Of a DNA stretch of 64,000 nucleotides, positions 1-32,254 are shown one piece after another (the stretch's first letter is position 1; the number at the start of each line of letters is the position of its first letter). The notes below the pieces were generated by a model that was given only the letters and a program-made list of their open reading frames with translations, had not been told where the DNA came from and ran no database searches. The DNA is from a virus, in IMG/VR virus record IMGVR_UViG_3300013947_000002, positions 32,001-96,000 of that record; one strand, given 5' to 3'. Position numbers and translations under genes: made by a program.

Positions 1-780
1 GTATCTTGACTTTTTATCCATATAATATCCTGTTACACAATCCTTCCAAGTTCGATACCACCACTGATACTTATACTTAGAAGATGTCAGATATATACTC
101 TTTGGTTCTTCAAGCCATCTTTTATTATTTGCGTATTTTGGATTATTCAAATAAAGAGGTTGCCTTGGAAATGCCATGCCTTCAAAAATCTGGTCAATAG
201 CAGACTTTTTCATAACTGCCGCTTCGTCATAAATTGTAAAATTAGAACGACTGCGACGGCTAGACTCGACAGGCGCTAATACGCGCAGGACAGAATTATT
301 AAGAGTGTTCTCTATTCTATAACCATCGCCCGGCTTGGTTATAACCAACCATTGTTTTTCGTAGCAATACCTGAGATAAGGAGAGAGTTTGTTAATCAAT
401 TCCCTTTGAATCTTGTCCTCAACAATAGCATTGGCCTGATCTACGGTGGATGCCGTGACAACAATCCAACAATTCGGATAAAGCATAAGCTTACACATTG
501 CAGCACAAGCCGTAACAAACGTTTTGGCACCGCCGCGCCCAGCTCTCCAAAAGAAGGTATCACTAACACCGATTTCATGTATAGCATCGCGCTGATACGG
601 CTTTAACGATATACCAAGATGAAACTCTGTATAAATATCCCAGTTGTAACGGTACAAGGAGTCCCAATCTATAACCCTTTCTTCTATCTCTGCATCGAGA
701 TTCTCATTACCAGATACTGTGCCACGCAATTTGTCAGCCATATACGCCCTACGAATGCCACCCATCTGAGAGCGCCCCAT
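1..780 (-). CDS. terL: terminase large subunit, N-terminal ~260 aa (runs off window start)
   Basis: Own minus-strand translation from ATG at 780. SD aggagg lies upstream and TAATG overlaps the upstream gene. Sequence: MGRSQMGG...KPYQRDAIHEIGVSDTFFWRAGRGGAKTF (Walker A-like)...NFTIYDEAAVM (Walker B-like). Not in the ORF track because there is no stop inside the window. Confidence 0.8.
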   Translation of the reverse strand, partial: MGRSQMGGIRRAYMADKLRGTVSGNENLDAEIEERVIDWDSLYRYNWDIYTEFHLGISLKPYQRDAIHEIGVSDTFFWRAGRGGAKTFVTACAAMCKLMLYPNCWIVVTASTVDQANAIVEDKIQRELINKLSPYLRYCYEKQWLVITKPGDGYRIENTLNNSVLRVLAPVESSRRSRSNFTIYDEAAVMKKSAIDQIFEGMAFPRQPLYLNNPKYANNKRWLEEPKSIYLTSSKYKYQWWYRTWKDCVTGYYMDKKSRY

Positions 781-1604
781 TATGCTTCCTCCTTGCTAAC
801 GTCTGGATATTCGCGAGTACAACAAATTGCATTGCGCAAGCTGCGCATCATCATTGCCTTTTCTTTCTCATAACCAACCTTATCGAGAAATTCTTGTAAT
901 TCCTCACATTCAGCCGGTCTAGTTGATTCTATAATGGCAACTCTCTTCTCAAATGCCCTTTCAGCGTCCGACTTTTGATTACTCTTAAAGTCATCAAGTT
1001 TAAGCAAAGACATAAGTGTCTTAATCTGCGCCTGAGTGTCTTTAGTTACGCCATTTTTATACTGTTCCAATTCCAACTTGCACAAATCACGATAGCGCAT
1101 CTCCATAGCGGTGCCCATCTCAAATACGCCAGACGTATAGCTATCAAACATATCGTCTAGCCATTGACAGTCCTCGTCCTCATAATCGCCACCCCACTGT
1201 TTGCGCCATCTTGCTTTAAGCGCCACCTCATCAGTTTCGCCCTTAGCAACATCGCCCAAATCCTTGAAATTAGACAGCTCCATATCACTATCCCATACAC
1301 CCGTTAATTTATCGGGCGATGTAGACAAGTAGGTATGATACAACATAAATAGACTAGGTTTTTTGCCCTTAGCCGCCTTATCTAGTGTCTCTAAGCATGA
1401 ATTATATTCTGCCCGCCGCATAGGAATGCCAGTCATCATACAGGTTGACCATAACGCCGCGCCTTGGTCTTTGGTCGCATCGAGCGCCTGTTTATATAGC
1501 TCAGTCACGCATGATTTACACGGCTTAATATATTCGCCCGTCTTGATTGGGCTTTTGTAAAATTGGCTATCTTGCTTTTCTTTGCCACAATACGGGCAAA
1601 ACAT
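780..1604 (-). CDS. hypothetical protein with N-terminal zinc ribbon; possible small terminase by position
   Basis: Track ORF 780..1637. Start moved to ATG 1604 (MFCPYCGKEK), preceded by aaaggaa. Lies directly upstream of terL and overlaps it. Function is inferred from position only. Confidence 0.35.
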   Translation of the reverse strand: MFCPYCGKEKQDSQFYKSPIKTGEYIKPCKSCVTELYKQALDATKDQGAALWSTCMMTGIPMRRAEYNSCLETLDKAAKGKKPSLFMLYHTYLSTSPDKLTGVWDSDMELSNFKDLGDVAKGETDEVALKARWRKQWGGDYEDEDCQWLDDMFDSYTSGVFEMGTAMEMRYRDLCKLELEQYKNGVTKDTQAQIKTLMSLLKLDDFKSNQKSDAERAFEKRVAIIESTRPAECEELQEFLDKVGYEKEKAMMMRSLRNAICCTREYPDVSKEEA

Positions 1605-1632
1605 ATTCTCATTCCTTTCAATTTCCAAATAT

Positions 1633-1665
1633 AACAAAACGGCCAGCCCACACAGAGCCAGCCGT
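1633..1665 (-). terminator. intrinsic terminator ending the long ncRNA
   Basis: Minus strand: acggctggctc-tgtgt-gggctggccgt, an 11 bp stem with 3 G.U pairs, followed by UUUUGUU. Confidence 0.5.
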
Positions 1666-2441
1666 TCGTTTATTTCATTTATTCAGTTGTCAAGGTTCAT
1701 ACTGTGATACCCTATCGCTAGGGGCATACGGCGTTTCGCCTTTAGTTGAACAACAGTTCCCATTGAGTTGGGCTTATTGTAGATATGAGGCCGTAGCCTC
1801 CGTCACCTCCTTTCGTCAATTATGCTTCGGATAAACCAGTGGATAATTCAAGAGAAAGTGACCTCCCTTCGGATATTCATAGCCGCCAATGAGTAGTAGC
1901 GACAGGCAGTTTCAGTATGTGCCTAGATACAAGCATTTCGTCAAAGCTCTTACTTGTCAAGCGCCATCAAGCATCTAGCGCTACTCACTGTTATGTTTTA
2001 ATCACGGCTAAGACTCGCTTGGTGTTACCGCCAATTTGGTCTTATTTAATCCCTCATCCCATGCACACGGGAACCGCAGTGCGCCTCATCTTATTTCACC
2101 CACGCATGGCGCTATGTTGGGAAATATGGTGCAATGGGTCTTAGATGTCTGCTCATCTCGCCTTTGCCTACTTATAGCAGAATCACCTGATATTTCTTTG
2201 CCGCATATCAGAAGCGTTTTTGAATATACGGTTTTCATCGTTGCCTTATGGTATACCGCAAACCTTCGATAAGCGTCCACATATCACTCATAGGCAACCG
2301 AGCCATATGCTTCATACGTTCGTATAACACACCTGTTGCTATACGCCTATCATCAAGGATAGGATTTTCGATACTATATTGACGTAGCCCGCCACAGCCA
2401 ACGTCATGCTCGTATTAGGCTCCACTGAATTGTGGATTCAC
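1666..2441 (-). ncRNA. candidate large structured non-coding RNA (~0.8 kb)
   Basis: Bounded by a near-consensus promoter and a terminator. No credible ORF in six frames. Visibly more G+C than its flanks. Many helices, e.g. gaggc-UACG-gcctc (1787-1800), TCCAC/GTGGA, and nested ATAGGC..GCAAC / GTTGC-CTAT. Confidence 0.5.
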
Positions 2442-2447
2442 GGCTCG

Positions 2448-2476
2448 ATTATATTCAACCCTACTAGATGCGTCAA
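2448..2476 (-). promoter_or_regulatory. sigma70-type promoter for the ncRNA
   Basis: Minus strand TTGACG (2476-2471), 17 nt spacer, TATAAT (2453-2448). Confidence 0.6.
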
Positions 2477-2529
2477 TCGCCCCGCAAGCATGATTGACCA
2501 GCCGTAGCTATCACCTAGTAGAGAATGAA

Positions 2530-3714
2530 TCAAAGATAAAATGTTTTACGCCACTCTGCACCATCTTCTGAATATGTAGTAAACATACAGGACGGTCTTG
2601 ACGCTTTACGAATTTTCTTGGCAAATCCATCAACGCCACATACAGAACCAACTCGCCAGCACAGCTTATCGCCTAGCTCGGTAATACCAGCGTTCTTCAT
2701 TTCTTGCCGATGCAGATGCCCAACATAGCACTCGTCAACGTCGATATTATATAAGTTCTCAAAATATCGCATTGTCTCGGCTACGTCGCCGCCATCACCA
2801 TGATGAAGCATAATTGCATTATTTTTAATATACTTAATGGCACAATCTGTATAATCATCAACCGTAATGCCGTCTATTGACTTTAGTCGCTCTTGTAGAT
2901 ACCATACAATGATTTTACCTAGATTTTCTTCCTCAAACTGTGGTTTAGATGTAAGAATGCGGCAGGTATCATGATTACCCCCGACCATTACAACGTTGAC
3001 AGGGATTTCAAGCCGGTCATGCAATTCAACAAACCAATCAGCTAGATATTCAGACAACTTGATAACTGTATCAATAACCGGCTCTCTCAGCTTAGTCAGG
3101 CTGGACGTGCGTAGAATATTCTCTACACAATCACCAAGCACAGCAACCGTAATATCATCAAGCCAAATGCAGTTATCATCATTGCACATCTTGTTAAGCA
3201 ACCCATCAAGCCGCGCCCTCATAATGTTGAAATCGTATTTATTCACAATTTCATTATATGCGCCCTTAATCTCGTAAGTTGAACCAGCATGAAGGTCTGA
3301 AATACAAAGAAGTCCACTCATATTTGTTTGAGGCAATTTATTAAACTCACGAATAGTAAAAGGCTCAAGACATCTAATCGACTCTGCAATCCTCTCCTGA
3401 ATCATGTCAGCTCTTGCGTCTAACCGCTGATTCTGGACATGCTGAATGTTCTCGCTCTGTAATTTCTTGCGCTCTTTCTCCAACTCAGTCTTCGCTTCTC
3501 TGAGTTGGTCTAAAATCTCCGCATCTTTCTCATCTGTCTCGACATCATCTGCACCATTCAGCATATTGCGGACAAACACGGCGCATCTTCGCAGATATTC
3601 GCTTGACCAGACATCCCTATAATCTTCACCAAGACAACGAGCCGTCCATTCTTGCAAGTCAATCAACTTGCTATCTAGTAGCTCAGTCGCTTGTCGTATC
3701 TTCGTTAGATTCAT
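2530..3714 (-). CDS. calcineurin-like metallophosphoesterase (SbcD/Mre11-like fold) with N-terminal coiled coil
   Basis: Motifs in order: ISDLHAGS (DxH), LGDCVENI (GD), GGNHD, MLHHGDGG, GHLH. Confidence 0.8.
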   Translation of the reverse strand: MNLTKIRQATELLDSKLIDLQEWTARCLGEDYRDVWSSEYLRRCAVFVRNMLNGADDVETDEKDAEILDQLREAKTELEKERKKLQSENIQHVQNQRLDARADMIQERIAESIRCLEPFTIREFNKLPQTNMSGLLCISDLHAGSTYEIKGAYNEIVNKYDFNIMRARLDGLLNKMCNDDNCIWLDDITVAVLGDCVENILRTSSLTKLREPVIDTVIKLSEYLADWFVELHDRLEIPVNVVMVGGNHDTCRILTSKPQFEEENLGKIIVWYLQERLKSIDGITVDDYTDCAIKYIKNNAIMLHHGDGGDVAETMRYFENLYNIDVDECYVGHLHRQEMKNAGITELGDKLCWRVGSVCGVDGFAKKIRKASRPSCMFTTYSEDGAEWRKTFYL

Positions 3715-4734: not shown

Positions 4735-5415
4735 TTAACATATCCCCCGTTCGGACAGGCGGGCTTCACGTGATGCAATGCGGCGCTGATTATCCGCTTT
4801 TTTGCCACACTCCTCAGAGCAATAATGCTGGCATACATCACGTGGTTTGAACCGCTTGCCGCAAATTGGGCAAATTGGATTAAGTGTGGCTGCATTGACT
4901 TTCAGATTCTCTACAATCTGCTTGCCAAAACAAGCCCACAACATTTTTTTATTGCTTGCTTTCTTAACCGTATATAGATACGCCACCAAGCTATTAACCA
5001 CAACATCCAGTGGCTCTTTGCTGTAATCCACAATATCTTGTGCTATGCACCGATACTTGTACAAATCGTCCTCATTGATATGCGGGTCATCGCCATAATC
5101 AAATCGGCGCTGATTCTTAATCCAGTAATTATACCGCTCAATGATTGGCGATTCTTCTCGCGTCGTATAATCAACTTGTTTGTTAATCAGCATTATCCAA
5201 TCAAACTTCCCAATTTTGTTATTATAGTGGATTCGGGAAGTAGGAATTTTGGCCGATATACGATTCATCGTGGAATTGTTGGGAGGCTCTACTTGGGTAT
5301 CCGGGTCTTTGTCTTTGGCGTATTGGAAGAAATTTGGCAATTTGGATTTAGTATATTTTTTTATAATATCTGAAATTTCTTTTGGCGGTTCCGATTTCCA
5401 CAATGTCTTTGCGAA
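4735..5415 (-). CDS. YonO/RdRP-like single-subunit RNA polymerase, exon 2 (C-terminal 226 aa)
   Basis: Frame is open exactly from the predicted 3' splice site (ggtattaaagG|ttcgca). No SD or ATG of its own. C-terminal zinc ribbon CPICGKRF...CSEEC. Confidence 0.55.
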   Translation of the reverse strand, partial: FAKTLWKSEPPKEISDIIKKYTKSKLPNFFQYAKDKDPDTQVEPPNNSTMNRISAKIPTSRIHYNNKIGKFDWIMLINKQVDYTTREESPIIERYNYWIKNQRRFDYGDDPHINEDDLYKYRCIAQDIVDYSKEPLDVVVNSLVAYLYTVKKASNKKMLWACFGKQIVENLKVNAATLNPICPICGKRFKPRDVCQHYCSEECGKKADNQRRIASREARLSERGIC

Positions 5416-6426
5416 CCTTTAATACCGTCTCTTTCGAGATACTTTAACACCACTCTAAGCGGTCGGAGTAGACTATCTCTTCATCTCAATGAGATGGATG
5501 GCACTTCGCAAGTAGGAATTTCACCTACAAGCTACACTGAAAACAGTTAGTCGTTACAGCTTCAAATGTTTGATATTTTAATTTTCTTGATAACCAAATA
5601 TCCAATCCTTATGGGTTTTATTTCGTCCGTGTAACACTCTGTCAATACAGGAATAACTTAAATTGCGGTCTTTTGCAAAATTTCTAATATTCACAAATTC
5701 TACATATTCGCCAGTTTTTAAGTTTCTTCCCCAACACGCCTTTTCGTGCGCCCTAGATGAATTGTCATGCAGGGTGAGCCATCTACAATTTTCTGGACAA
5801 TAATCACCATGTGGATTTATTCTGTCGATAGTCAAATCTTCTTGATAACCATTGGATAACGCCCAATCTCTGAATGTTTCATAAGAATTTAACCACTCGT
5901 CACAAACCGTAATACCCTTTGCTCCATAATCCGCATAGCTACGAACGTTAGGATTATAGCAACGCGACTTCATATTTGACCACGTCCTATAAAGTTTGCT
6001 TCGATTGCCAACTATCGCACCACCAGACTCTCCATGACGAGTTTTGTTCTGATGAACTCTCTCAAGTCTTAAACATCCACAAGAACGAATTGGTTTATAC
6101 TGCTGGACTAATTTGTATTTAACAACCTCGACAATGTTGCCGCAATCACACTTGCATACTACAAGTAATTTACCTTCTTTATTTCTTTTGTCTGGTAATT
6201 CAACAACCGTCAATTTTTCAAATTTATCGCCTATCTTAATTTCATTTGATCTCACACCTAAACCTCCTTTCTTTTATGATAACATCAAACATTCGCTTGC
6301 CACGGTATTGCCATGCGCTCATGCGTTTAGGGTTTTACCGTTAGCACGGCATATGCCGCACACCCTACATTTGTAGGTTCACCATCATTCACATCATATG
6401 TCACCATATGAGTGGACTATCGTTTA
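5416..6426 (-). mobile_element. group I intron with homing-endonuclease ORF, inside the RNA polymerase gene
   Basis: Minus strand carries gctaacggtaaaaccctaa (P3-P4 like), the R element taacGACTAactg and the S element agaTAGTCtactcc (P7 pairing GACTA/TAGTC). The 3' end ggtattaaagg matches the thyX intron end gggtataaagg. P1 is weak (gat/gtc). Confidence 0.7.
5578..6255 (-). CDS. intron-encoded homing endonuclease (HNH-related DRID...NCRW family)
   Basis: GTG start 7 nt after aaggagg. KLYRTWSNMKSRCYNPNVRSYADYGAKGITVCDEW...LTIDRINPHGDYCPENCRW. Paralogous to 37310..38005 and 58639..59334. Confidence 0.75.
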   Translation of the reverse strand: MRSNEIKIGDKFEKLTVVELPDKRNKEGKLLVVCKCDCGNIVEVVKYKLVQQYKPIRSCGCLRLERVHQNKTRHGESGGAIVGNRSKLYRTWSNMKSRCYNPNVRSYADYGAKGITVCDEWLNSYETFRDWALSNGYQEDLTIDRINPHGDYCPENCRWLTLHDNSSRAHEKACWGRNLKTGEYVEFVNIRNFAKDRNLSYSCIDRVLHGRNKTHKDWIFGYQEN

Positions 6427-8325
6427 ATCTATAACTTGATTATTCTTCATTGTCAACCAAGCGATAACCTTGATTTGTTCCTCCGTCATCTTACCGCCAT
6501 TAGCGTTTTTTACCTTCGAAATTGCATTACTGATAGGGCCGATTGAGCCGCCTGTATATGCTGTACTTACACCTTCATATAGCCTGTCTGCGTCGATAAT
6601 ACCACCACGAGCTTTTTTAAGGTCATATGACAGCGGAACAATCCCTTGCATATTGCGCTTTGCTACAGTTGTTAGCGTCTTATCCTTGACAACTAAAGAA
6701 ATATCTCCGTCAAAATCTTGCTGCAAGATACGGCTAATCATGTCATGACAACTAAAATAAACACACTTTGTCCCACCCAACCATTTATCAGTCAATTCAT
6801 TTCGCTTGTTGACACGAACGGCGTGTTCTTGGTATAGGTGCGGACTTCTCAGACAATCAAGCTCGTCGCCATCCTTGAATTGATTAGTATATACTTCACC
6901 ATTCTCAAGTAATCCAGTTGGGAATTGTTCACCCTTGAATAACCACTCACAGAACGCCACAGGGTCAGGTGAGATGAACAAGTATTTGCCATTGATTCTC
7001 AATCTACCGCCTTTTGCTTGTTTGACAAGACTTTTTTTAGTTTGCTTTAATATTTCCCGATTGTAAACATCCTTGAATAATTCTGGATAAATCGTCAACG
7101 CCTCTTGCATGGCTGTTTTTGTCTGATTATACTCAGTTGCCCCAAGCAATCTCATCGTTGTTTGATAGTCACGCCCAACACTGTCAATTTCATCTACTGT
7201 CTTCGCGATAAGCCGCTCAATTTCATTGTCGGTCATATCGCTCAATGATTGTAGCATCTGATAATTGATTCGAGCCTTTGGGATATAATCCTCCTCGACT
7301 TTGCAGCAACCGAAGTGACAACCATAACTCTTAAAGTTCGACTTGTAGCAGAACCAGCTAGGGTAGAATTTGTACAGCTTAAACATTGATTTCGTTAGGA
7401 TATACTGAATATCATCTTCAATGATTTTCCATTCCTTTCCATATATATCCGTAACAGACCAATCATCAGCGGAACAATATTCTTTGAGCCATCCTCTAAA
7501 ATCAAAGTAGGACACCAACCCCTTTATCCACGGGCCGCGCACGATTTGCGTCTTGAATCCGGGCTTACAACACATGCCCCACCCGTCAGTTTCAGCTATA
7601 ACCGTCTCTGATACTTTGCGCGTAATGCTATAATCTGTATAATCAATAAAGTCCGACTCGGCAGTTACCGGCATCTCAAAATCATCCACCACTATACACC
7701 GGTCTATATCAAAATCGTCCATTCTGTCTGTTGCAGATGCCATAAGGCTCTTATAGCTCAACAGCTTGTTTTCATTCATACCGCCCTGAGCGTTAATTGA
7801 ATCGATGGTTAATCCGCACATGAGCGTCTGCTCAACTTCATTATAGTCTTTTTCCCTAACGGCCATAAACCGCTTTGTGCGTATCATGCCAGCGCCGCAT
7901 GAGTAGAAAATGTAATGCTCGCCTTTGTAATTGAAACCATTGTGAATGATGCTATTAAGAATCTCAAAAAAGAACACGTTGACAATGATTATTTTGTCGC
8001 TACGCTCGAACGTCTTGATTCCTAGACTTCGAGTCAACTCAGAACAGAATAGATTGATGATTGTCTTGTCTTTTACTGCGTCTGGATTGAGTTCTCTAGT
8101 AATATTATCTTCGAGAGATTTTTTAAGCAATTTGACAAGTTCGTCTTTATGCTTTTTAATAACACGATTGATAGATGAGACACGCCATTTGCGATTTTGC
8201 CCATCTTTTTCTCGCATACGCAATGTATATAATTTAACAAGACGATTATGAATGGCTTGTTCATCCGATGTATAGAAAGCATCTGTATTGATGGAGGGGA
8301 TGAAGCAAAACTCTGTTAATGGCAC
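6427..8325 (-). CDS. YonO/RdRP-like single-subunit (two-barrel) RNA polymerase, exon 1 (633 aa)
   Basis: GTG start after gaggtgat. CLRSPHLYQEHAVRV...VYFSCHDMISRILQQDFDGDISLVVKD matches the cellular-RdRP/YonO catalytic pattern (P-x-L-H-like strand, then DxDGD). The joined length of 859 aa is consistent with my recollection of YonO at roughly 800-plus aa; I could not verify that here. Confidence 0.6.
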
Positions 8326-25792: not shown

Positions 25793-25821
25793 TTGATAAA
25801 TAAAATCAAATGTGGTATAAT
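25793..25821 (+). promoter_or_regulatory. sigma70-type promoter driving a ~1 kb ORF-free transcript
   Basis: TTGATA 25793-98, 17 nt spacer, TGgTATAAT (25816-21). Confidence 0.65.
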
Positions 25822-25827
25822 TGAGAA

Positions 25828-26830
25828 TGTAAAGATGATGGTGCTACGAAGCCCACAGAGGACACTATCCATGGAGTGCCGAGCTGGGGAATACAGGAGC
25901 AGTAGTAAATGGAGTGAGATGAACAGCCATCATTATATGCCATATGAGGTCTTGAATGCGAATGAGCCAATGGCTGAAATTGCTCATCCAGATTTGGAGT
26001 AGTATTCAAGATATAACCTTAGCATTGCTCGTGCGAGAGGCAAGCCAAGCTAACTGCATATCCTACGTGGAATGTCTGTCTTGGATGGAAAAGAGCGAAT
26101 TAGGGAACGTGCGTGAGATAAATGAGAGAAGCATAAAAGCGGGTCACAGTCGTGTGAAAGACCGTAATGCCAAGTAGGGCGCACCAGTCAATCTGTTCGG
26201 CATAATAAAGGGATTGGGGTTGACGATTATAGAATGGCACATCGGAAAGACGATGATAATATCCGACCGGATTTGAAGATAACCGTCAAATCTATATCAC
26301 GCCTGCACTGGGGTCTGCGCAGAGTTTGAGAAGCGGCAGATACAGACTAGAGAATTGGGGTCGCGCCCAATCGTGCCACGTTAGCATCCATGCAAAAACG
26401 TAACGTCGAAGGTGATATAAGGATGTTATGTAAACAGCATTCACGAGCCGATGCTAGAAGTAGCTATGAGGTAGGAAGTCGGCTTGAGATTGAATATGGA
26501 AGTGTAAGCTAACTGGATAAACCTCGCCAATTTGGTGAGATTGCAAGTTCGATTCTTGTCACTTCTATTCCCCCACATCCATCACGCTTCTGTTTAGCAT
26601 TGCAAGCGTACCACGATGGATGTATAGAAAAGTCTAAAATCCTAGCTTTGTAAGGCTGAACACAAGAATTGGTCACTTGTGAACGGTCTAGTTTATAAGT
26701 TATAATGCTAGTTGCCGAATAGTTGAAAGCTGACCACCTGACGCTATGAGGCAGCGCTCGCCACACTCCCGATTTTAAGATGGTTGCGCAACTGTAAATT
26801 CAATTTAGCCTGAATTTGTAAGGAGTGTGG
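25828..26830 (+). ncRNA. candidate large structured non-coding RNA (~1 kb) with an embedded tRNA-like module
   Basis: No ORF with an SD. Visibly more G+C than its flanks. Helices include TTGGG-gtcgcg-CCCAA (26355-70), ACGTTA/TAACGT (26378-83/26401-06), AGCCGA/TCGGCT (26446-51/26479-84) and CCACACTCC/GGAGTGTGG (26771-79/26822-30). The 3' end is uncertain, and this could be a long 5' UTR of the HU gene. Confidence 0.45.
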
Positions 26831-27256: not shown

Positions 27257-27285
27257 TTGACAAATCGCCGCTGTGGTGCTATACT
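27257..27285 (+). promoter_or_regulatory. sigma70-type promoter
   Basis: TTGACA 27257-62, 17 nt spacer, TATACT 27280-85. Confidence 0.65.
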
Positions 27286-27314
27286 TAAACCATCAAATAA
27301 AGGAGCTGAATGAT

Positions 27315-28151
27315 ATGAACGAACTATTTATTATGTCGCTTAAAGCAAAGCATCGTAGTGAGGGTACCATTCGCGAATATACCAAGGCGATCGAGAACTG
27401 CTTGTCGTATGTCAAGAAGCCTGAAACCGACATCAAGCCGATTGACCTTGAGTTGTGGCAGTCCAGCATGAGCAATCTTAGCTCTGCATCCGTAGCACAG
27501 CGCACATCGGCTGTTCGCGAGTATTTCAAGTTCTTGTATCGCAATGAATTTATCAGTCGCAATCCTGCTGATATGCTTGAAGCGCCGAGTATCAAGAATC
27601 GTGAGCAGTCGGCTCTTGATGGAGAGCAGGTCAGAGCGATGATTAACGCCGCAACAAATCTGCGTAACAAGGCGATTATTACGATGCTGGCTCAGACCGG
27701 TCTTCGCATCCATGAGCTTGCCAATATCACGCTTGAGCAGTATCAGAGCCGCAATGGTAATGTGTTGGTCATTCGTGGTAAGGGTGATAAGGATAGGCTG
27801 GTTGGCCTGGCTGATGAGACGATCAAGCTGATTGATAGCTATATTGCTAATGAGCGCAAAGACGGCTGCGAATACCTGTTCGTCGGCAATCGCGGCAATA
27901 AGATGGACGGCAAGAACACCAGTGCTATGCTCAAGGTGTGCGCTAAGAAGGCTGGTATTGAGAATTGGGAGGAGTTGCATATCAGCAATCATACGATGCG
28001 CCGCACGTTTGCTACGATGATGTCCGAAGCCGACGTACCTATTGAGATAATTAGTAAGGCAATGGGGCACTCAGGTTTGGCTATCACGTCCAGATACATC
28101 AAGCGCACCGAGCAGAGAGCGGTCAATGCTATGGCTGTTATGAGTTTTTAA
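27315..28151 (+). CDS. tyrosine recombinase/integrase (XerC/XerD-like)
   Basis: ATG 27315 behind aggag. GLRIHEL (Arg), HTMRRTFAT (HxxR), GHSGLAITSRYI (His...Tyr). Confidence 0.85.
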   Translation: MNELFIMSLKAKHRSEGTIREYTKAIENCLSYVKKPETDIKPIDLELWQSSMSNLSSASVAQRTSAVREYFKFLYRNEFISRNPADMLEAPSIKNREQSALDGEQVRAMINAATNLRNKAIITMLAQTGLRIHELANITLEQYQSRNGNVLVIRGKGDKDRLVGLADETIKLIDSYIANERKDGCEYLFVGNRGNKMDGKNTSAMLKVCAKKAGIENWEELHISNHTMRRTFATMMSEADVPIEIISKAMGHSGLAITSRYIKRTEQRAVNAMAVMSF

Positions 28152-30855: not shown

Positions 30856-32254
30856 TAAAGGCGCATCTAGGCCATATCTAAAATGCATCGGCGCATCGGC
30901 TGTTGGTGTTACTCAATCATGCTATATGGTTCGTTTTCAAAAATACTGTATTATGTTAGATTGCGGCATTTACCAAGAGAGCGACATCCTTACTAATTAC
31001 AGACAGAATCAAGCGTTGCTTAAAAAGATTAAGCCAAGAGAGGTGGATTGGCTTATTTTACATGAGGCTCATGCCGATCACACATGTCTTGTTCCGGCTC
31101 TATATGCTAAAGGATGTCAAGCTCATATCATATGCCCAAAAGGAACTACGGCTTATCTTAAGGTGTTATGGGAAGATTCTTGTAAAATAATGACGCAGGA
31201 TTGTCAAAAGATTACAAACAAGCACGGGATTAAAGCTGCGCCATTATATACACCGGATGATATTGCGACAGCTCTTAGTAGATGTATCGAAGTCGAGGCA
31301 TTGACAAAATACAACTTAACACCTAATATTGTACTAACATATTATCCAGCCAATCACATTATCAATTCGTGCCAATTATCACTTGTAATGACGCAAGGCT
31401 ATCAACGTAAAGTGTTAAATTTTACTGGTGATATTGGAGGAAAAACGTCGCAGTTTTATCTTGAGTCAAGAGTTGATTTGCCGTTCTGCGACGTGCTGCT
31501 TGGTGAAAACACATATAATGCCATTGGGCGCAACAACAAGCCGTATGATAGGCAGAAAGATTTAGATAAGATTGAAGCCGTTCTTAATCAGTCTAAACGA
31601 ACACTGTTCCCTGTATTTGCATTAGGTCGATGCCAAAGTATATTAACTATACTATACCAGTTGTGGAAAGATAACAAGATTCCGCACGATGTTCAAGTAT
31701 ATGTAGATTCGCCTATGGCCCAAAAGATATGTGCTTTATATCCAGAAGACGATGTGCTGTGGAATGAAGTATATCATTGGGATAAATTGCAGTTTGTGCC
31801 TGACCACGCAACTACATTATTACTTCAAAATACAAAACCAACTCATCCTATGGTGGTTTGCTCGTCTGCGGGTATGCTATCGGGCGGTAAGAGTATATCA
31901 TGGGCTAAGGCGTTACTGCCAGACCCAAATGCCCATATTATGTTCTGCGGTTATAGCTCTGAAAATACGCTTGCTTCAAAGATTAGATTTGGTGAGAGAA
32001 AGATTAGTATTGAAGGTGACGTGGTTGAGAACAATGCTAATATCACGGAGCTTGTGTCATTCTCGTCTCATGCCTCGCGCGATGAATTGATTAATTATTA
32101 CGCAAATACGTTGCGTTTCAACAAGCTCTGCCTGGTACATGGCAATTATGACAATAAAGTCGAATTTGCCCATACTCTACAAGATGCGCTTGTTAAACAG
32201 GGTAAATCAAATAGGGTTGTAGTGACCCAACAAGACCAGAGAATTTTTATCTGA
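30848..32254 (+). CDS. metallo-beta-lactamase fold beta-CASP nuclease (RNase J/CPSF/SNM1-like)
   Basis: LHEAHADHTCLVP, SSAGMLSGGKS, FSSHASRDEL and LVHGN motifs in beta-CASP order. Confidence 0.75.
   Translation: MVNKGASRPYLKCIGASAVGVTQSCYMVRFQKYCIMLDCGIYQESDILTNYRQNQALLKKIKPREVDWLILHEAHADHTCLVPALYAKGCQAHIICPKGTTAYLKVLWEDSCKIMTQDCQKITNKHGIKAAPLYTPDDIATALSRCIEVEALTKYNLTPNIVLTYYPANHIINSCQLSLVMTQGYQRKVLNFTGDIGGKTSQFYLESRVDLPFCDVLLGENTYNAIGRNNKPYDRQKDLDKIEAVLNQSKRTLFPVFALGRCQSILTILYQLWKDNKIPHDVQVYVDSPMAQKICALYPEDDVLWNEVYHWDKLQFVPDHATTLLLQNTKPTHPMVVCSSAGMLSGGKSISWAKALLPDPNAHIMFCGYSSENTLASKIRFGERKISIEGDVVENNANITELVSFSSHASRDELINYYANTLRFNKLCLVHGNYDNKVEFAHTLQDALVKQGKSNRVVVTQQDQRIFI

Follow-up and report, generated by a model that had tools for sequence, protein, structure and literature searches.

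What occupies the gene-free stretch ahead of the DNA-packaging genes in an SPbeta-like gut phage, and what might it do there? The window that we analysed, 64,000 nucleotides (nt) from positions 32,001 to 96,000 of IMG/VR record IMGVR_UViG_3300013947_000002, contains such a gap of ~926 nt (0.9 kb) at 2533..1605, just upstream of a YonG_N-family gene and the TerL gene. The gap is read here on the minus strand, which carries every gene from the window start to ~9.1 kb, and all features below lie on that strand unless stated otherwise. A first-pass annotation had taken the gap for a single ornate RNA of ~0.8 kb, one of two such RNAs in this phage. Comparison with relatives gives a different answer. 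The gap is a mosaic of separable sense-strand RNA domains, real non-coding RNA and more than chance, and two of its parts, a 133-nt core and a multi-stem domain D, are undescribed RNA domains supported by covariation and without a match in Rfam 15. We put at about one in two the reading in which the gap is a modular leader of the packaging/late block whose core binds ribosomes and stabilises or attenuates the packaging messenger RNA (mRNA).

Results

The gap is non-coding, structured and modular

The proposal that the gap is non-coding and structured on the gene-sense strand held up well. An 809-nt stretch of it folds better than shuffled sequences (z = -4.48), and the gap has no credible open reading frame (ORF), the longest being 64-95 amino acids (aa), mostly antisense, with no significant Pfam or PHROG match. 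The check for a degraded gene was also run: besides the lack of Pfam or PHROG matches for the gap ORFs, tblastn with SPbeta YonH, YonI and YonK found no trace of similarity in the gap. A non-coding stretch with sense-strand structure directly upstream of the packaging pair makes a role in the expression of that pair plausible.

The picture of one large RNA did not survive. Across 26 close relatives from IMG/VR (loci labelled L0xx) the gap measures 258-1506 nt, and its blocks are present, absent or exchanged within a common order: an 85-nt block, slot 1, two hairpins plus a drum RNA, slot 2, domain D, the core, slot 3, a hairpin or terminator, and the ribosome binding site (RBS). In L015 and L026 the gap consists of the core and terminator alone, and relatives reduced in this way have gaps of 258-261 nt. 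In five loci (L019, L021, L029 and L030 among them) the drum is joined directly to the core. Homing-endonuclease ORFs of the HNH/NUMOD4 kind sit within the gap of L023 (2872-3669) and L030 (2623-3123), and the leader is a hot spot for mobile insertions. Only the core and the downstream hairpin are present in all relatives, down to ~35% protein identity. When modules were folded singly, only the core, the two hairpins preceding the drum and the terminator folded clearly better than shuffles. This mosaic of blocks among relatives argues against one large co-folding RNA, and the Infernal/Rfam scan of 1400-2800 points the same way, yielding at E<=10 (E, expectation value) the drum alone and no GOLLD, ROOL or other large RNA.

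A core RNA supported by covariation

The core (1741..1873) has in the window, listed from its 5' side, a Shine-Dalgarno (SD)-like element, SD1 (GGGAGG, 1867..1862), and the 5' strand of helix P1 (GUCAC, 1862..1858, pairing with GUGAC, 1806..1802). A mini-ORF follows, running from UUG (1851..1849) to UGA (1818..1816), reading MNYPLVYPKHN and containing a weak apical hairpin, UGG/CCG (P3). Beyond it come a second SD-like element, SD2 (GAAAGGAGGUGA, 1814..1803), the hairpin GAGGC-UACG-GCCUC (1800..1787) followed by AUCU, and helix P4 (ACAAUA, 1780..1775, with UGUUGU, 1755..1750) around helix P5 (CCCA, 1772..1769, with UGGG, 1762..1759). Slot 3 of the window holds an insert (1691..1740) of GGCG-AAA-CGCC and then a hairpin CCCUA..UAGGG; this insert is otherwise found only in L027, L037, L075, L097, L099 and L100, and its second hairpin varies in sequence by clade with its position kept. 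A single-stranded tail, ACAACUGAAUAA (1679..1690; consensus ACAACUGAAUAU), is conserved in most clades and is unpaired in most single-sequence folds.

Among close relatives the core is near-invariant, which alone is weak evidence because the neighbouring 5' half of the gene is also ~92% identical. We therefore turned to distant relatives, collected via the YonG_N protein at 35-65% identity, in which the gap is 260-320 nt long and the core is diverged yet recognisable. A common plan is shared. Its 5' part has a GNRA hairpin over SD1 (GGAGG), the P1 5' strand, the UUG and apical P3; its middle has a stop overlapping SD2 (GAAAGGAG), the P1 3' strand, an optional hairpin and AUCU; there follow the P4 5' strand, AG, the P5 hairpin, AAC, the P4 3' strand and optional inserts; and the 3' end has the tail, a hairpin usually with a U-tract, and the RBS.

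The helices of this plan, defined by hand, are paired in 29/29 sequences. Each core helix occurs in 10-16 distinct versions, and 88-100% of the versions are fully paired with their own partners; when strands were cross-combined between versions, full pairing was seen in 9-10% of combinations for P3, P4 and P5 and in 32% for P1. With a MAFFT alignment, the share of paired cells is 88.5%, compared with 72.5% for shuffles (0/500 reach 88.5%), the covariation score is 0.525 against 0.243 in shuffles, slid controls reach at most 42%, and 14 pairs have changed on both sides. A model-based alignment of 47 distinct core sequences gave the same covariation picture. The UACG-capped hairpin, singled out by the first-pass annotation, covaries in relatives as GAGCC/GGCUC and GUGGC/GCCAC, and the comparative check for compensatory changes that it had proposed found them in domain D (below) as well as in the core helices. 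The sense strand has many G-U pairs (at one P1 pair, in 34/46 rows), which fits a structure of RNA and not of duplex DNA. A further helix, P2 (CUU/AAG), has 65-74% of cells paired and a conserved sequence and was not counted as supported.

From the core alignment we built a covariance model, R1. Each of 58 loci has exactly one match, which scores 64-119 bits and in every case immediately precedes the YonG_N gene; one additional match is interrupted by a contig end. In the window its single match is at 1873..1741 (88.1 bits, E 1e-16). The core has no Rfam match at E<=10, and R1 finds no core in SPbeta (best 12 bits), PMBT24 or TR-TP1.

Domain D, immediately upstream (1878..1996), was folded with RNAalifold from 9 sequences. 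A closing helix, CAUA (1996..1993) with UAUG (1881..1878), surrounds two hairpins, one internal and one terminal. The terminal one reads GUCGC-UACUACUCAUUG-GCGGC (1903..1882), and its loop is able to pair with CAGUGAGUAG on the 5' side. Compensatory changes affect 8/18 pairs, among them pairs of the closing helix (CAUA/UAUG vs CCAA/UUGG, with AU/UA vs CG/CG) and of the terminal hairpin, and the loop pairing has one compensatory switch, GAGU/ACUC vs GAUU/AAUC. Domain D recurs in distant loci.

A frame-conserved mini-ORF between two Shine-Dalgarno-like elements

The mini-ORF has 11 codons here and lies between SD1 and SD2, inside the long hairpin. The frame that opens at the conserved UUG runs to the conserved stop before SD2 in 27/27 distinct versions. 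Its length is 33, 36, 39 or 45 nt as a result of several separate indels, with the frame kept each time. The peptides themselves are unrelated (MNYPLVYPKHN in the window; MHPFVCIYQTKV, MRPTVRKYLTKV and MSTCEIFTKA elsewhere) and the internal hairpin covaries, which suggests that translation of the mini-ORF, rather than its peptide, is under selection.

SD2 has 7-13 nt of contiguous complementarity to the 3' end of 16S ribosomal RNA in 32/32 versions, and 12 nt in the window. Only one start codon follows it, at a distance of 0-3 nt, and frames further downstream are not conserved; a second mini-ORF in that position was considered and dropped for lack of a conserved frame. In Firmicutes, SD-like sequences in leaders stabilise mRNAs because the ribosome or 30S subunit that they hold stands in the way of RNase J1, and the known stabilisers of this kind are the cry3A STAB-SD, ermC and hbs (PMC4113751, PMC3997798).

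Exchangeable cassettes upstream of the core

The part of the gap between the promoter-like site and domain D differs most between relatives. Slot 1 of the window holds cassette A1 (2365..2447, 83 nt, fold z -1.23), with two predicted hairpins. They include the putative UCCAC/GUGGA helix of the first-pass annotation (2436..2432 with 2425..2421). The cassette is limited to the window and L039. Elsewhere slot 1 holds a 55-nt element of a hairpin and AAGGAG, which we call A2, or nothing at all (L029), and in L027, L028, L030 and L031 it holds a DUF3800-VIII RNA (RF03075) at 48-54 bits. That RNA has no match in window positions 1400-2800 at E<=10.

Next come two conserved hairpins (2321..2364, fold z -2.95), CCUAUC/GAUAGG (2363..2346) and CGUAUAGCA/UGUUAUACG (2345..2321), which are unchanged in all relatives that have a drum at this site (site 1). 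The drum itself (Rfam RF02958, 2224..2320) is a full-length match to model positions 1-112 and a marginal one, at 43.3 bits against a gathering score of 43 and with E 8.4e-5 for 64 kb. The same site in L019, L021, L030 and L039 scores 43.6-44.9 bits. The conserved drum nucleotides UGAA, GGA, GGUU, ACC and GAAAAC are kept within 2320..2224. Helix P2 of the drum is compensatory in few independent versions, namely CUCG..UGAG (window) vs CCGG..CGGC (L030) at site 1 and CGGCGGC/GUUGCCG (L024) vs CAAUGGC/GUUGUUG (L039) at site 2. This site 2 is a second drum that relatives carry between the TerL stop and the portal gene, at 45-57.6 bits (L024 6691-6804 and 10 other loci), a position beyond the left edge of the window; in this clade the drum thus flanks the YonG_N-TerL pair on both sides. 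The class is an orphan motif described by Weinberg et al. in 2017, with 3' terminators and nearby proteins possibly related to DUF3800, and for both drum and DUF3800-VIII an association of their classes with DUF3800-type genes has been reported (PMC5737381). The DUF3800 domain itself is RNase-H-like, with links to mobile elements and to defence systems. Here the neighbours of the drum are YonJ-like, YonG_N, TerL and portal genes; no terminator-like site was found in 2224-1667 on the minus strand, and no Pfam match to DUF3800 stood at the top of the list for 56 window ORFs or came up at E<=0.01 for 20 size-matched ORFs. Drum and DUF3800-VIII were both missing from 20 more distant loci and are hence accessory parts.

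Three further stretches separate the drum from domain D. Stretch C (2122..2223, fold z -0.76), with a hairpin CUGAUAU/AUAUCAG, is common only to the window, L039, L027 and L031 in a BLAST mosaic, and stretch F (2001..2080, fold z -1.18), with hairpins CCCGUGUGCAUGGG and UAAGAC...GUCUUA, only to the window, L039 and L027. Between them lies module E (2081..2121), a weak candidate for an H-type pseudoknot with stems S1 (CCCA/UGGG, 2121..2118 with 2102..2099) and S2 (GCGCC/GGCGC, 2112..2108 with 2085..2081). This 45-nt module recurs in several clades (L014, L027, L031, L074), and the distant L068 has the sole divergent version, S1 CCUG/CAGG and S2 GCGCU/GGCGC. The GCGCC/GGCGC helix named in the first-pass annotation is stem 2 of this candidate pseudoknot, which recurs in distant loci. 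The nested helix of that annotation, AUAGGC-GCAAC/GUUGC-CUAU, is not supported: the drum fold and the two conserved hairpins compete with it, and it is partly broken in relatives by changes on one side only.

Promoter-like site and terminator

The gap opens with a conserved block of 85 nt (2448..2533) that is near-invariant in ~20 relatives and ends at a promoter-like site, -35 TTGACG (2476..2471), a 17-nt spacer and -10 TATAAT (2453..2448). This promoter, already noted in the first pass, matches 11/12 consensus positions and is the best site within 1400-2800; as a class, promoter-like sites are not enriched there (4 found vs 3.2 expected). Most changes within the block fall in the spacer, and conservation ends precisely at the -10, where the variable cassettes start. 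A perfect TATAAT occurs only in the window and L039, and most relatives have TATATC. A possible stem CUAGGUG/CACCUAG around the -35 has one-sided or wobble changes only and two mismatched variants, and the changes are more simply read as promoter spacer variation.

At the other end, the terminator hairpin previously placed before the YonG_N start is well supported, with a 13-bp stem (1667..1637) followed by UUUUGUUAUAUUU, a U-tract at 1636..1627 and a fold z-score of -5.07 over 1627..1667. Every clade has a hairpin at this position, of unrelated sequence and in most with a U-tract. The RBS GAAAGGA (1619..1613) and the ATG (1604..1602) of the YonG_N-family gene follow (1602..1619).

Two short sequences were considered as signals for the phage polymerase. 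The octamer YTGAATAT has copies in the promoter block, ahead of the core and within the tail, and was rejected as a promoter motif, most copies being in coding DNA and showing no extended consensus. It is enriched 2.6-fold in the window (32 sites vs 12 expected, e.g. 2458, 12393, 33251, 56206), which is probably a codon-usage effect. The sequence GGCTGGTCA is common to the promoter block of the window and the SPbeta P_YonO region and is found inside genes of other loci too; as a YonO promoter core it is a weak lead.

Genes and phage context

The YonG_N-family gene (783..1604) encodes a 274-aa zinc-ribbon protein, and its stop overlaps the start of the TerL gene (1..780) in TAATG at 782..778. 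On the other flank of the gap lies a metallophosphoesterase/exonuclease gene (2533..3714), followed by HU-like DNA-binding proteins. Precomputed Pfam labels on the flanking proteins of relatives are YonJ_CC and YonG_N, with an RdRP-type (RNA-dependent RNA polymerase) polymerase upstream. The first-pass annotation had called the gene after the terminator a putative small terminase. Its position directly after the terminator stands, and the label stays putative; the protein is a YonG_N-family zinc-ribbon protein with no PDB match by sequence or by fold. Its AlphaFold model (predicted local distance difference test 79.5) has an N-terminal CxxC...CxxC ribbon and then helices; the N-terminal half is far better conserved than the C-terminal half, which varies along with TerL.

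A YonO homologue is encoded in the window, with 43% identity to SPbeta YonO residues 8-625. Its gene is in two parts within 4738..8325, ORF 6427..8325 corresponding to those residues and ORF 4738..5403 to residues 636-839 (33% identity). The ORF between them (5581..6255) has a weak I-HmuI NUMOD-like match, and the arrangement looks like an intron- or intein-like homing-endonuclease insertion within the polymerase gene; Rfam at its gathering threshold finds no group I intron at the split. The phage is a temperate gut phage of SPbeta-like build with a YonO-type RNA polymerase. GenBank phages showed no DNA similarity to the window. In a search for the host among GTDB genomes the core pattern had no match, and a protein scan led to one distant Bacilli metagenome-assembled genome, which lacks the core.

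The second region that had been likened to this gap, 25793-26830, is not a paralogue of it, with no BLAST similarity, no common Rfam family and no match of R1 there. Region 25793-26830 has a tRNA-like (transfer RNA) match at 26498..26567 (plus strand, 30.9 bits), where ARAGORN makes no call, and a tyrosine integrase gene (27273..28148, plus strand) begins just after it. It looks like a phage attachment site (attP) region with a tRNA fragment, and not a large structured RNA.

The SPbeta late-operon leader

The late operon of SPbeta is transcribed by YonO, and its 5' leader has been described as an 'unannotated non-coding RNA' (PMC5467207). The SPbeta record (NC_001884, our L125) has a CDS-free gap (free of annotated coding sequence) of 1.68 kb between yonN and yonK, and published primer-extension primers put the YonO transcript start near L125 10358-10550. 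Within this leader we find a DUF3800-VIII RNA (47.5 bits), two tandem A2-like hairpin-AAGGAG elements (CUGC-CAUG-UGCAG and UGUAC-CAUGAU-GUACA), similar to those that relatives in the present clade carry, at E 1e-7 to 1e-10, and a D-type hairpin, GCC-GCUACUAAUCAA-GGC, related to the hairpin of domain D. The SPbeta elements lie at L125 9410-9475, 9545-9662 and 9699-9716 (minus strand), all downstream of the published start region.

Discussion

The reading that we favour, at about an even chance, is that the gap is a modular sense-strand leader serving the YonG_N gene, TerL and, in relatives, also the portal gene. Its upstream part (2447..1878) would be a series of exchangeable, independently folding cassettes, drum and domain D included, and its fixed part would be the core (1873..1741) together with the hairpin or terminator (1667..1627) just before the YonG_N RBS. 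Ribosomes or 30S subunits could bind the core at SD1 and the UUG mini-ORF, and could also bind SD2, where there is no usable start codon. A ribosome held there would block 5'-to-3' decay by RNase J1, and the core would in this way set the stability, hence the level, of the packaging mRNA. Translation of the mini-ORF would open the P1-P3 hairpin, in which SD1, the start codon and SD2 are otherwise hidden. The terminator would stop transcripts that host polymerase begins at the upstream promoter, leaving a short leader RNA, and the YonO-type polymerase may read through it into the packaging genes.

Several points weigh against this reading. The mini-ORF always starts with UUG and never with AUG or GUG, and the UUG may be retained for pairing and not for initiation; in the predicted fold SD1, the start codon and SD2 are partly base-paired. 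The conserved P4-P5 domain, internal loop and tail exceed what a plain STAB-SD needs. In folds of 16 diverse leaders no core segment, P4b and the tail included, was seen in a conserved antiterminator pairing with the terminator, and in some clades, e.g. L066, the downstream hairpin has no U-tract. The -10 hexamer is poor in most relatives. Transcription may begin upstream of this site, and the gap could be intercistronic. The score of the drum is only 0.3 bits over threshold. Lastly, the idea that YonO-type polymerases ignore intrinsic terminators is an inference from the flap domain that SPbeta YonO lacks (discussion of PMC5467207).

Part of the leader could be doing something else altogether. 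The upstream cassettes (A1, drum, D and E here, DUF3800-VIII or A2 in relatives) might be free-standing, trans-acting small RNAs made from the promoter at 2476..2448, serving as decoys or antitoxin mimics against host DUF3800 defence, which is compatible with a ribosome-binding core. Their turnover between near-identical phages resembles that of counter-defence loci, drum and DUF3800-VIII are classes reported near DUF3800-type genes (PMC5737381), the DUF3800 domain is RNase-H-like and tied to mobile elements and defence systems, and relatives carry a further drum copy between terL and portal. We consider this unlikely, since the window ORFs tested included no DUF3800 gene, neither a terminator nor an obvious processing signal lies between the cassettes, the drum is here without the 3' terminator of its class, SPbeta has the same motifs within a long YonO-made leader and not as separate genes, and decoy activity is known for none of them. 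The core, perhaps with domain D, could alternatively modify the transcribing polymerase in the manner of HK022 put or Bacillus EAR, giving read-through of 1667..1627 and of later late-operon terminators. It would suit this that a long operon is headed by a conserved structured RNA with a conserved terminator immediately after it; conserved internal-loop nucleotides (AG // AAC) and the tail resemble a recognition surface, and a long structured leader also heads the SPbeta late operon. There is however no put or EAR similarity in sequence or structure (no Rfam match, E<=10), and the frame-conserved mini-ORF and two strong SD-like elements would be left unexplained; we regard the odds as distinctly long.

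The core might also act as DNA, either as a headful packaging (pac) site or as a promoter of the hairpin type, used by the phage polymerase. It directly precedes a gene in the small-terminase position and is co-conserved with the N-terminal zinc-ribbon half of that gene, the related isolate PMBT24 is a pac-type phage, and contigs L085 and L109 (3300013947_000097 and 3300045988_134281) have their first letters 52 and 138 nt ahead of the YonG_N gene. The start of L109 falls inside the core; such starts could mean that the assembly broke at a strain-variable region or that DNA really ends there, and contig breaks are expected at a strain-variable mosaic. We hold action at the DNA level to be improbable: compensatory changes come with many G-U pairs, which are C-A mismatches on the other strand, and the YonG_N protein is not demonstrably a small terminase. 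Moreover, the SPbeta genome opens between yonR and yonP and not at yonG, and this packaging start weakens the pac reading of the core. Improbable too is the original picture of the whole ~0.8 kb as one large, ornate, trans-acting RNA of the GOLLD/ROOL kind. The fold z-score of the whole region (-4.48) and its bracketing by a single promoter and a single terminator speak for it, and GOLLD too occurs in phages and has a variable half (PMC5737381); but no large-RNA family is matched at E<=10, individual domains come, go and change places independently of one another, down to gaps of 258-261 nt with core and terminator alone, no long-range helix between modules survives comparison, and most modules singly fold no better than shuffles. 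That the gap consists of decayed protein genes, such as remnants of yonH and yonI, which in SPbeta lie between yonJ and yonG, we find barely conceivable, given gap ORFs without Pfam or PHROG matches, the absence of tblastn similarity to YonH, YonI and YonK, and a conservation that takes the form of helix covariation and is not codon-like.

With a modular leader as the favoured reading, an anonymous gap is now mapped as a set of RNA parts, and the idea of two related giant RNAs in one phage is corrected. Both the core and domain D occur widely across a large group of human-gut phages, and the core is a compact candidate for the control of DNA-packaging protein levels. Drum and DUF3800-VIII, without a function since 2017, are placed in long leaders heading SPbeta-like late genes, DUF3800-VIII inside the experimentally mapped, YonO-made leader of SPbeta; the name drum in itself explains little. 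A bolder idea, and one we would bet against, is that YonO-type phages draw their late-operon leaders from a shared, exchangeable RNA toolkit (drum, DUF3800-VIII, A2, domain D, core) that acts with the polymerase or the packaging machinery. The domains might help the polymerase past terminators, might keep the nascent transcript apart from the template when the enzyme has neither lid nor flap, or might serve as an RNA component of packaging. If true, this would give the orphan 'DUF3800-associated' RNA classes of 2017 a biological setting, with SPbeta in Bacillus subtilis at hand as a genetic system in which to study them.

Comparison with known systems

Set against GOLLD and ROOL, the region shares the general character of several hundred nt of structured non-coding RNA in a phage genome, but it has no covariance-model match, no fixed overall architecture and no adjacent tRNA, and its domains are dispensable one by one. 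Leader-peptide attenuators and put or EAR elements are alike in placing a short ORF or structured RNA just before an intrinsic terminator at an operon head. Here, in contrast to the attenuators, no alternative antiterminator pairing was found and the mini-ORF lacks a regulatory codon run, and HK022 put and EAR have no similarity to this leader.

The STAB-SD sequence reportedly reads GAAAGGAGG in the 1996 work of Agaisse and Lereclus. Like STAB-SD, the core offers an SD-like leader element with extended 16S complementarity, ~200 nt upstream of the gene, that starts no gene itself, and like the ermC leader it has a short leader ORF. It differs from STAB-SD, ermC and hbs in that two SD-like elements flank a mini-ORF within a conserved long hairpin, and in that a P4-P5 domain, tail and terminator follow, which the known stabilisers lack. 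The drum departs from the rest of its class in being one domain of a longer leader with two extra conserved hairpins on its 5' side, without its own terminator and with no DUF3800-type gene found nearby.

In build the leader also resembles that of SPbeta. The neighbourhood is the same (YonO, HU-like protein, YonJ, YonG, TerL, portal), a long CDS-free structured stretch heads the late genes, and DUF3800-VIII, the A2 hairpin with AAGGAG and the D-type hairpin are common to SPbeta and this phage clade. The SPbeta leader differs in its length of ~1.3 kb, in its place between yonN and yonK, upstream of yonJ, and in lacking both a drum match (E<=1) and the core, while the window itself lacks A2 and DUF3800-VIII. 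The small motifs shared with the SPbeta leader indicate that a long leader built from such motifs is a common trait of this phage group.

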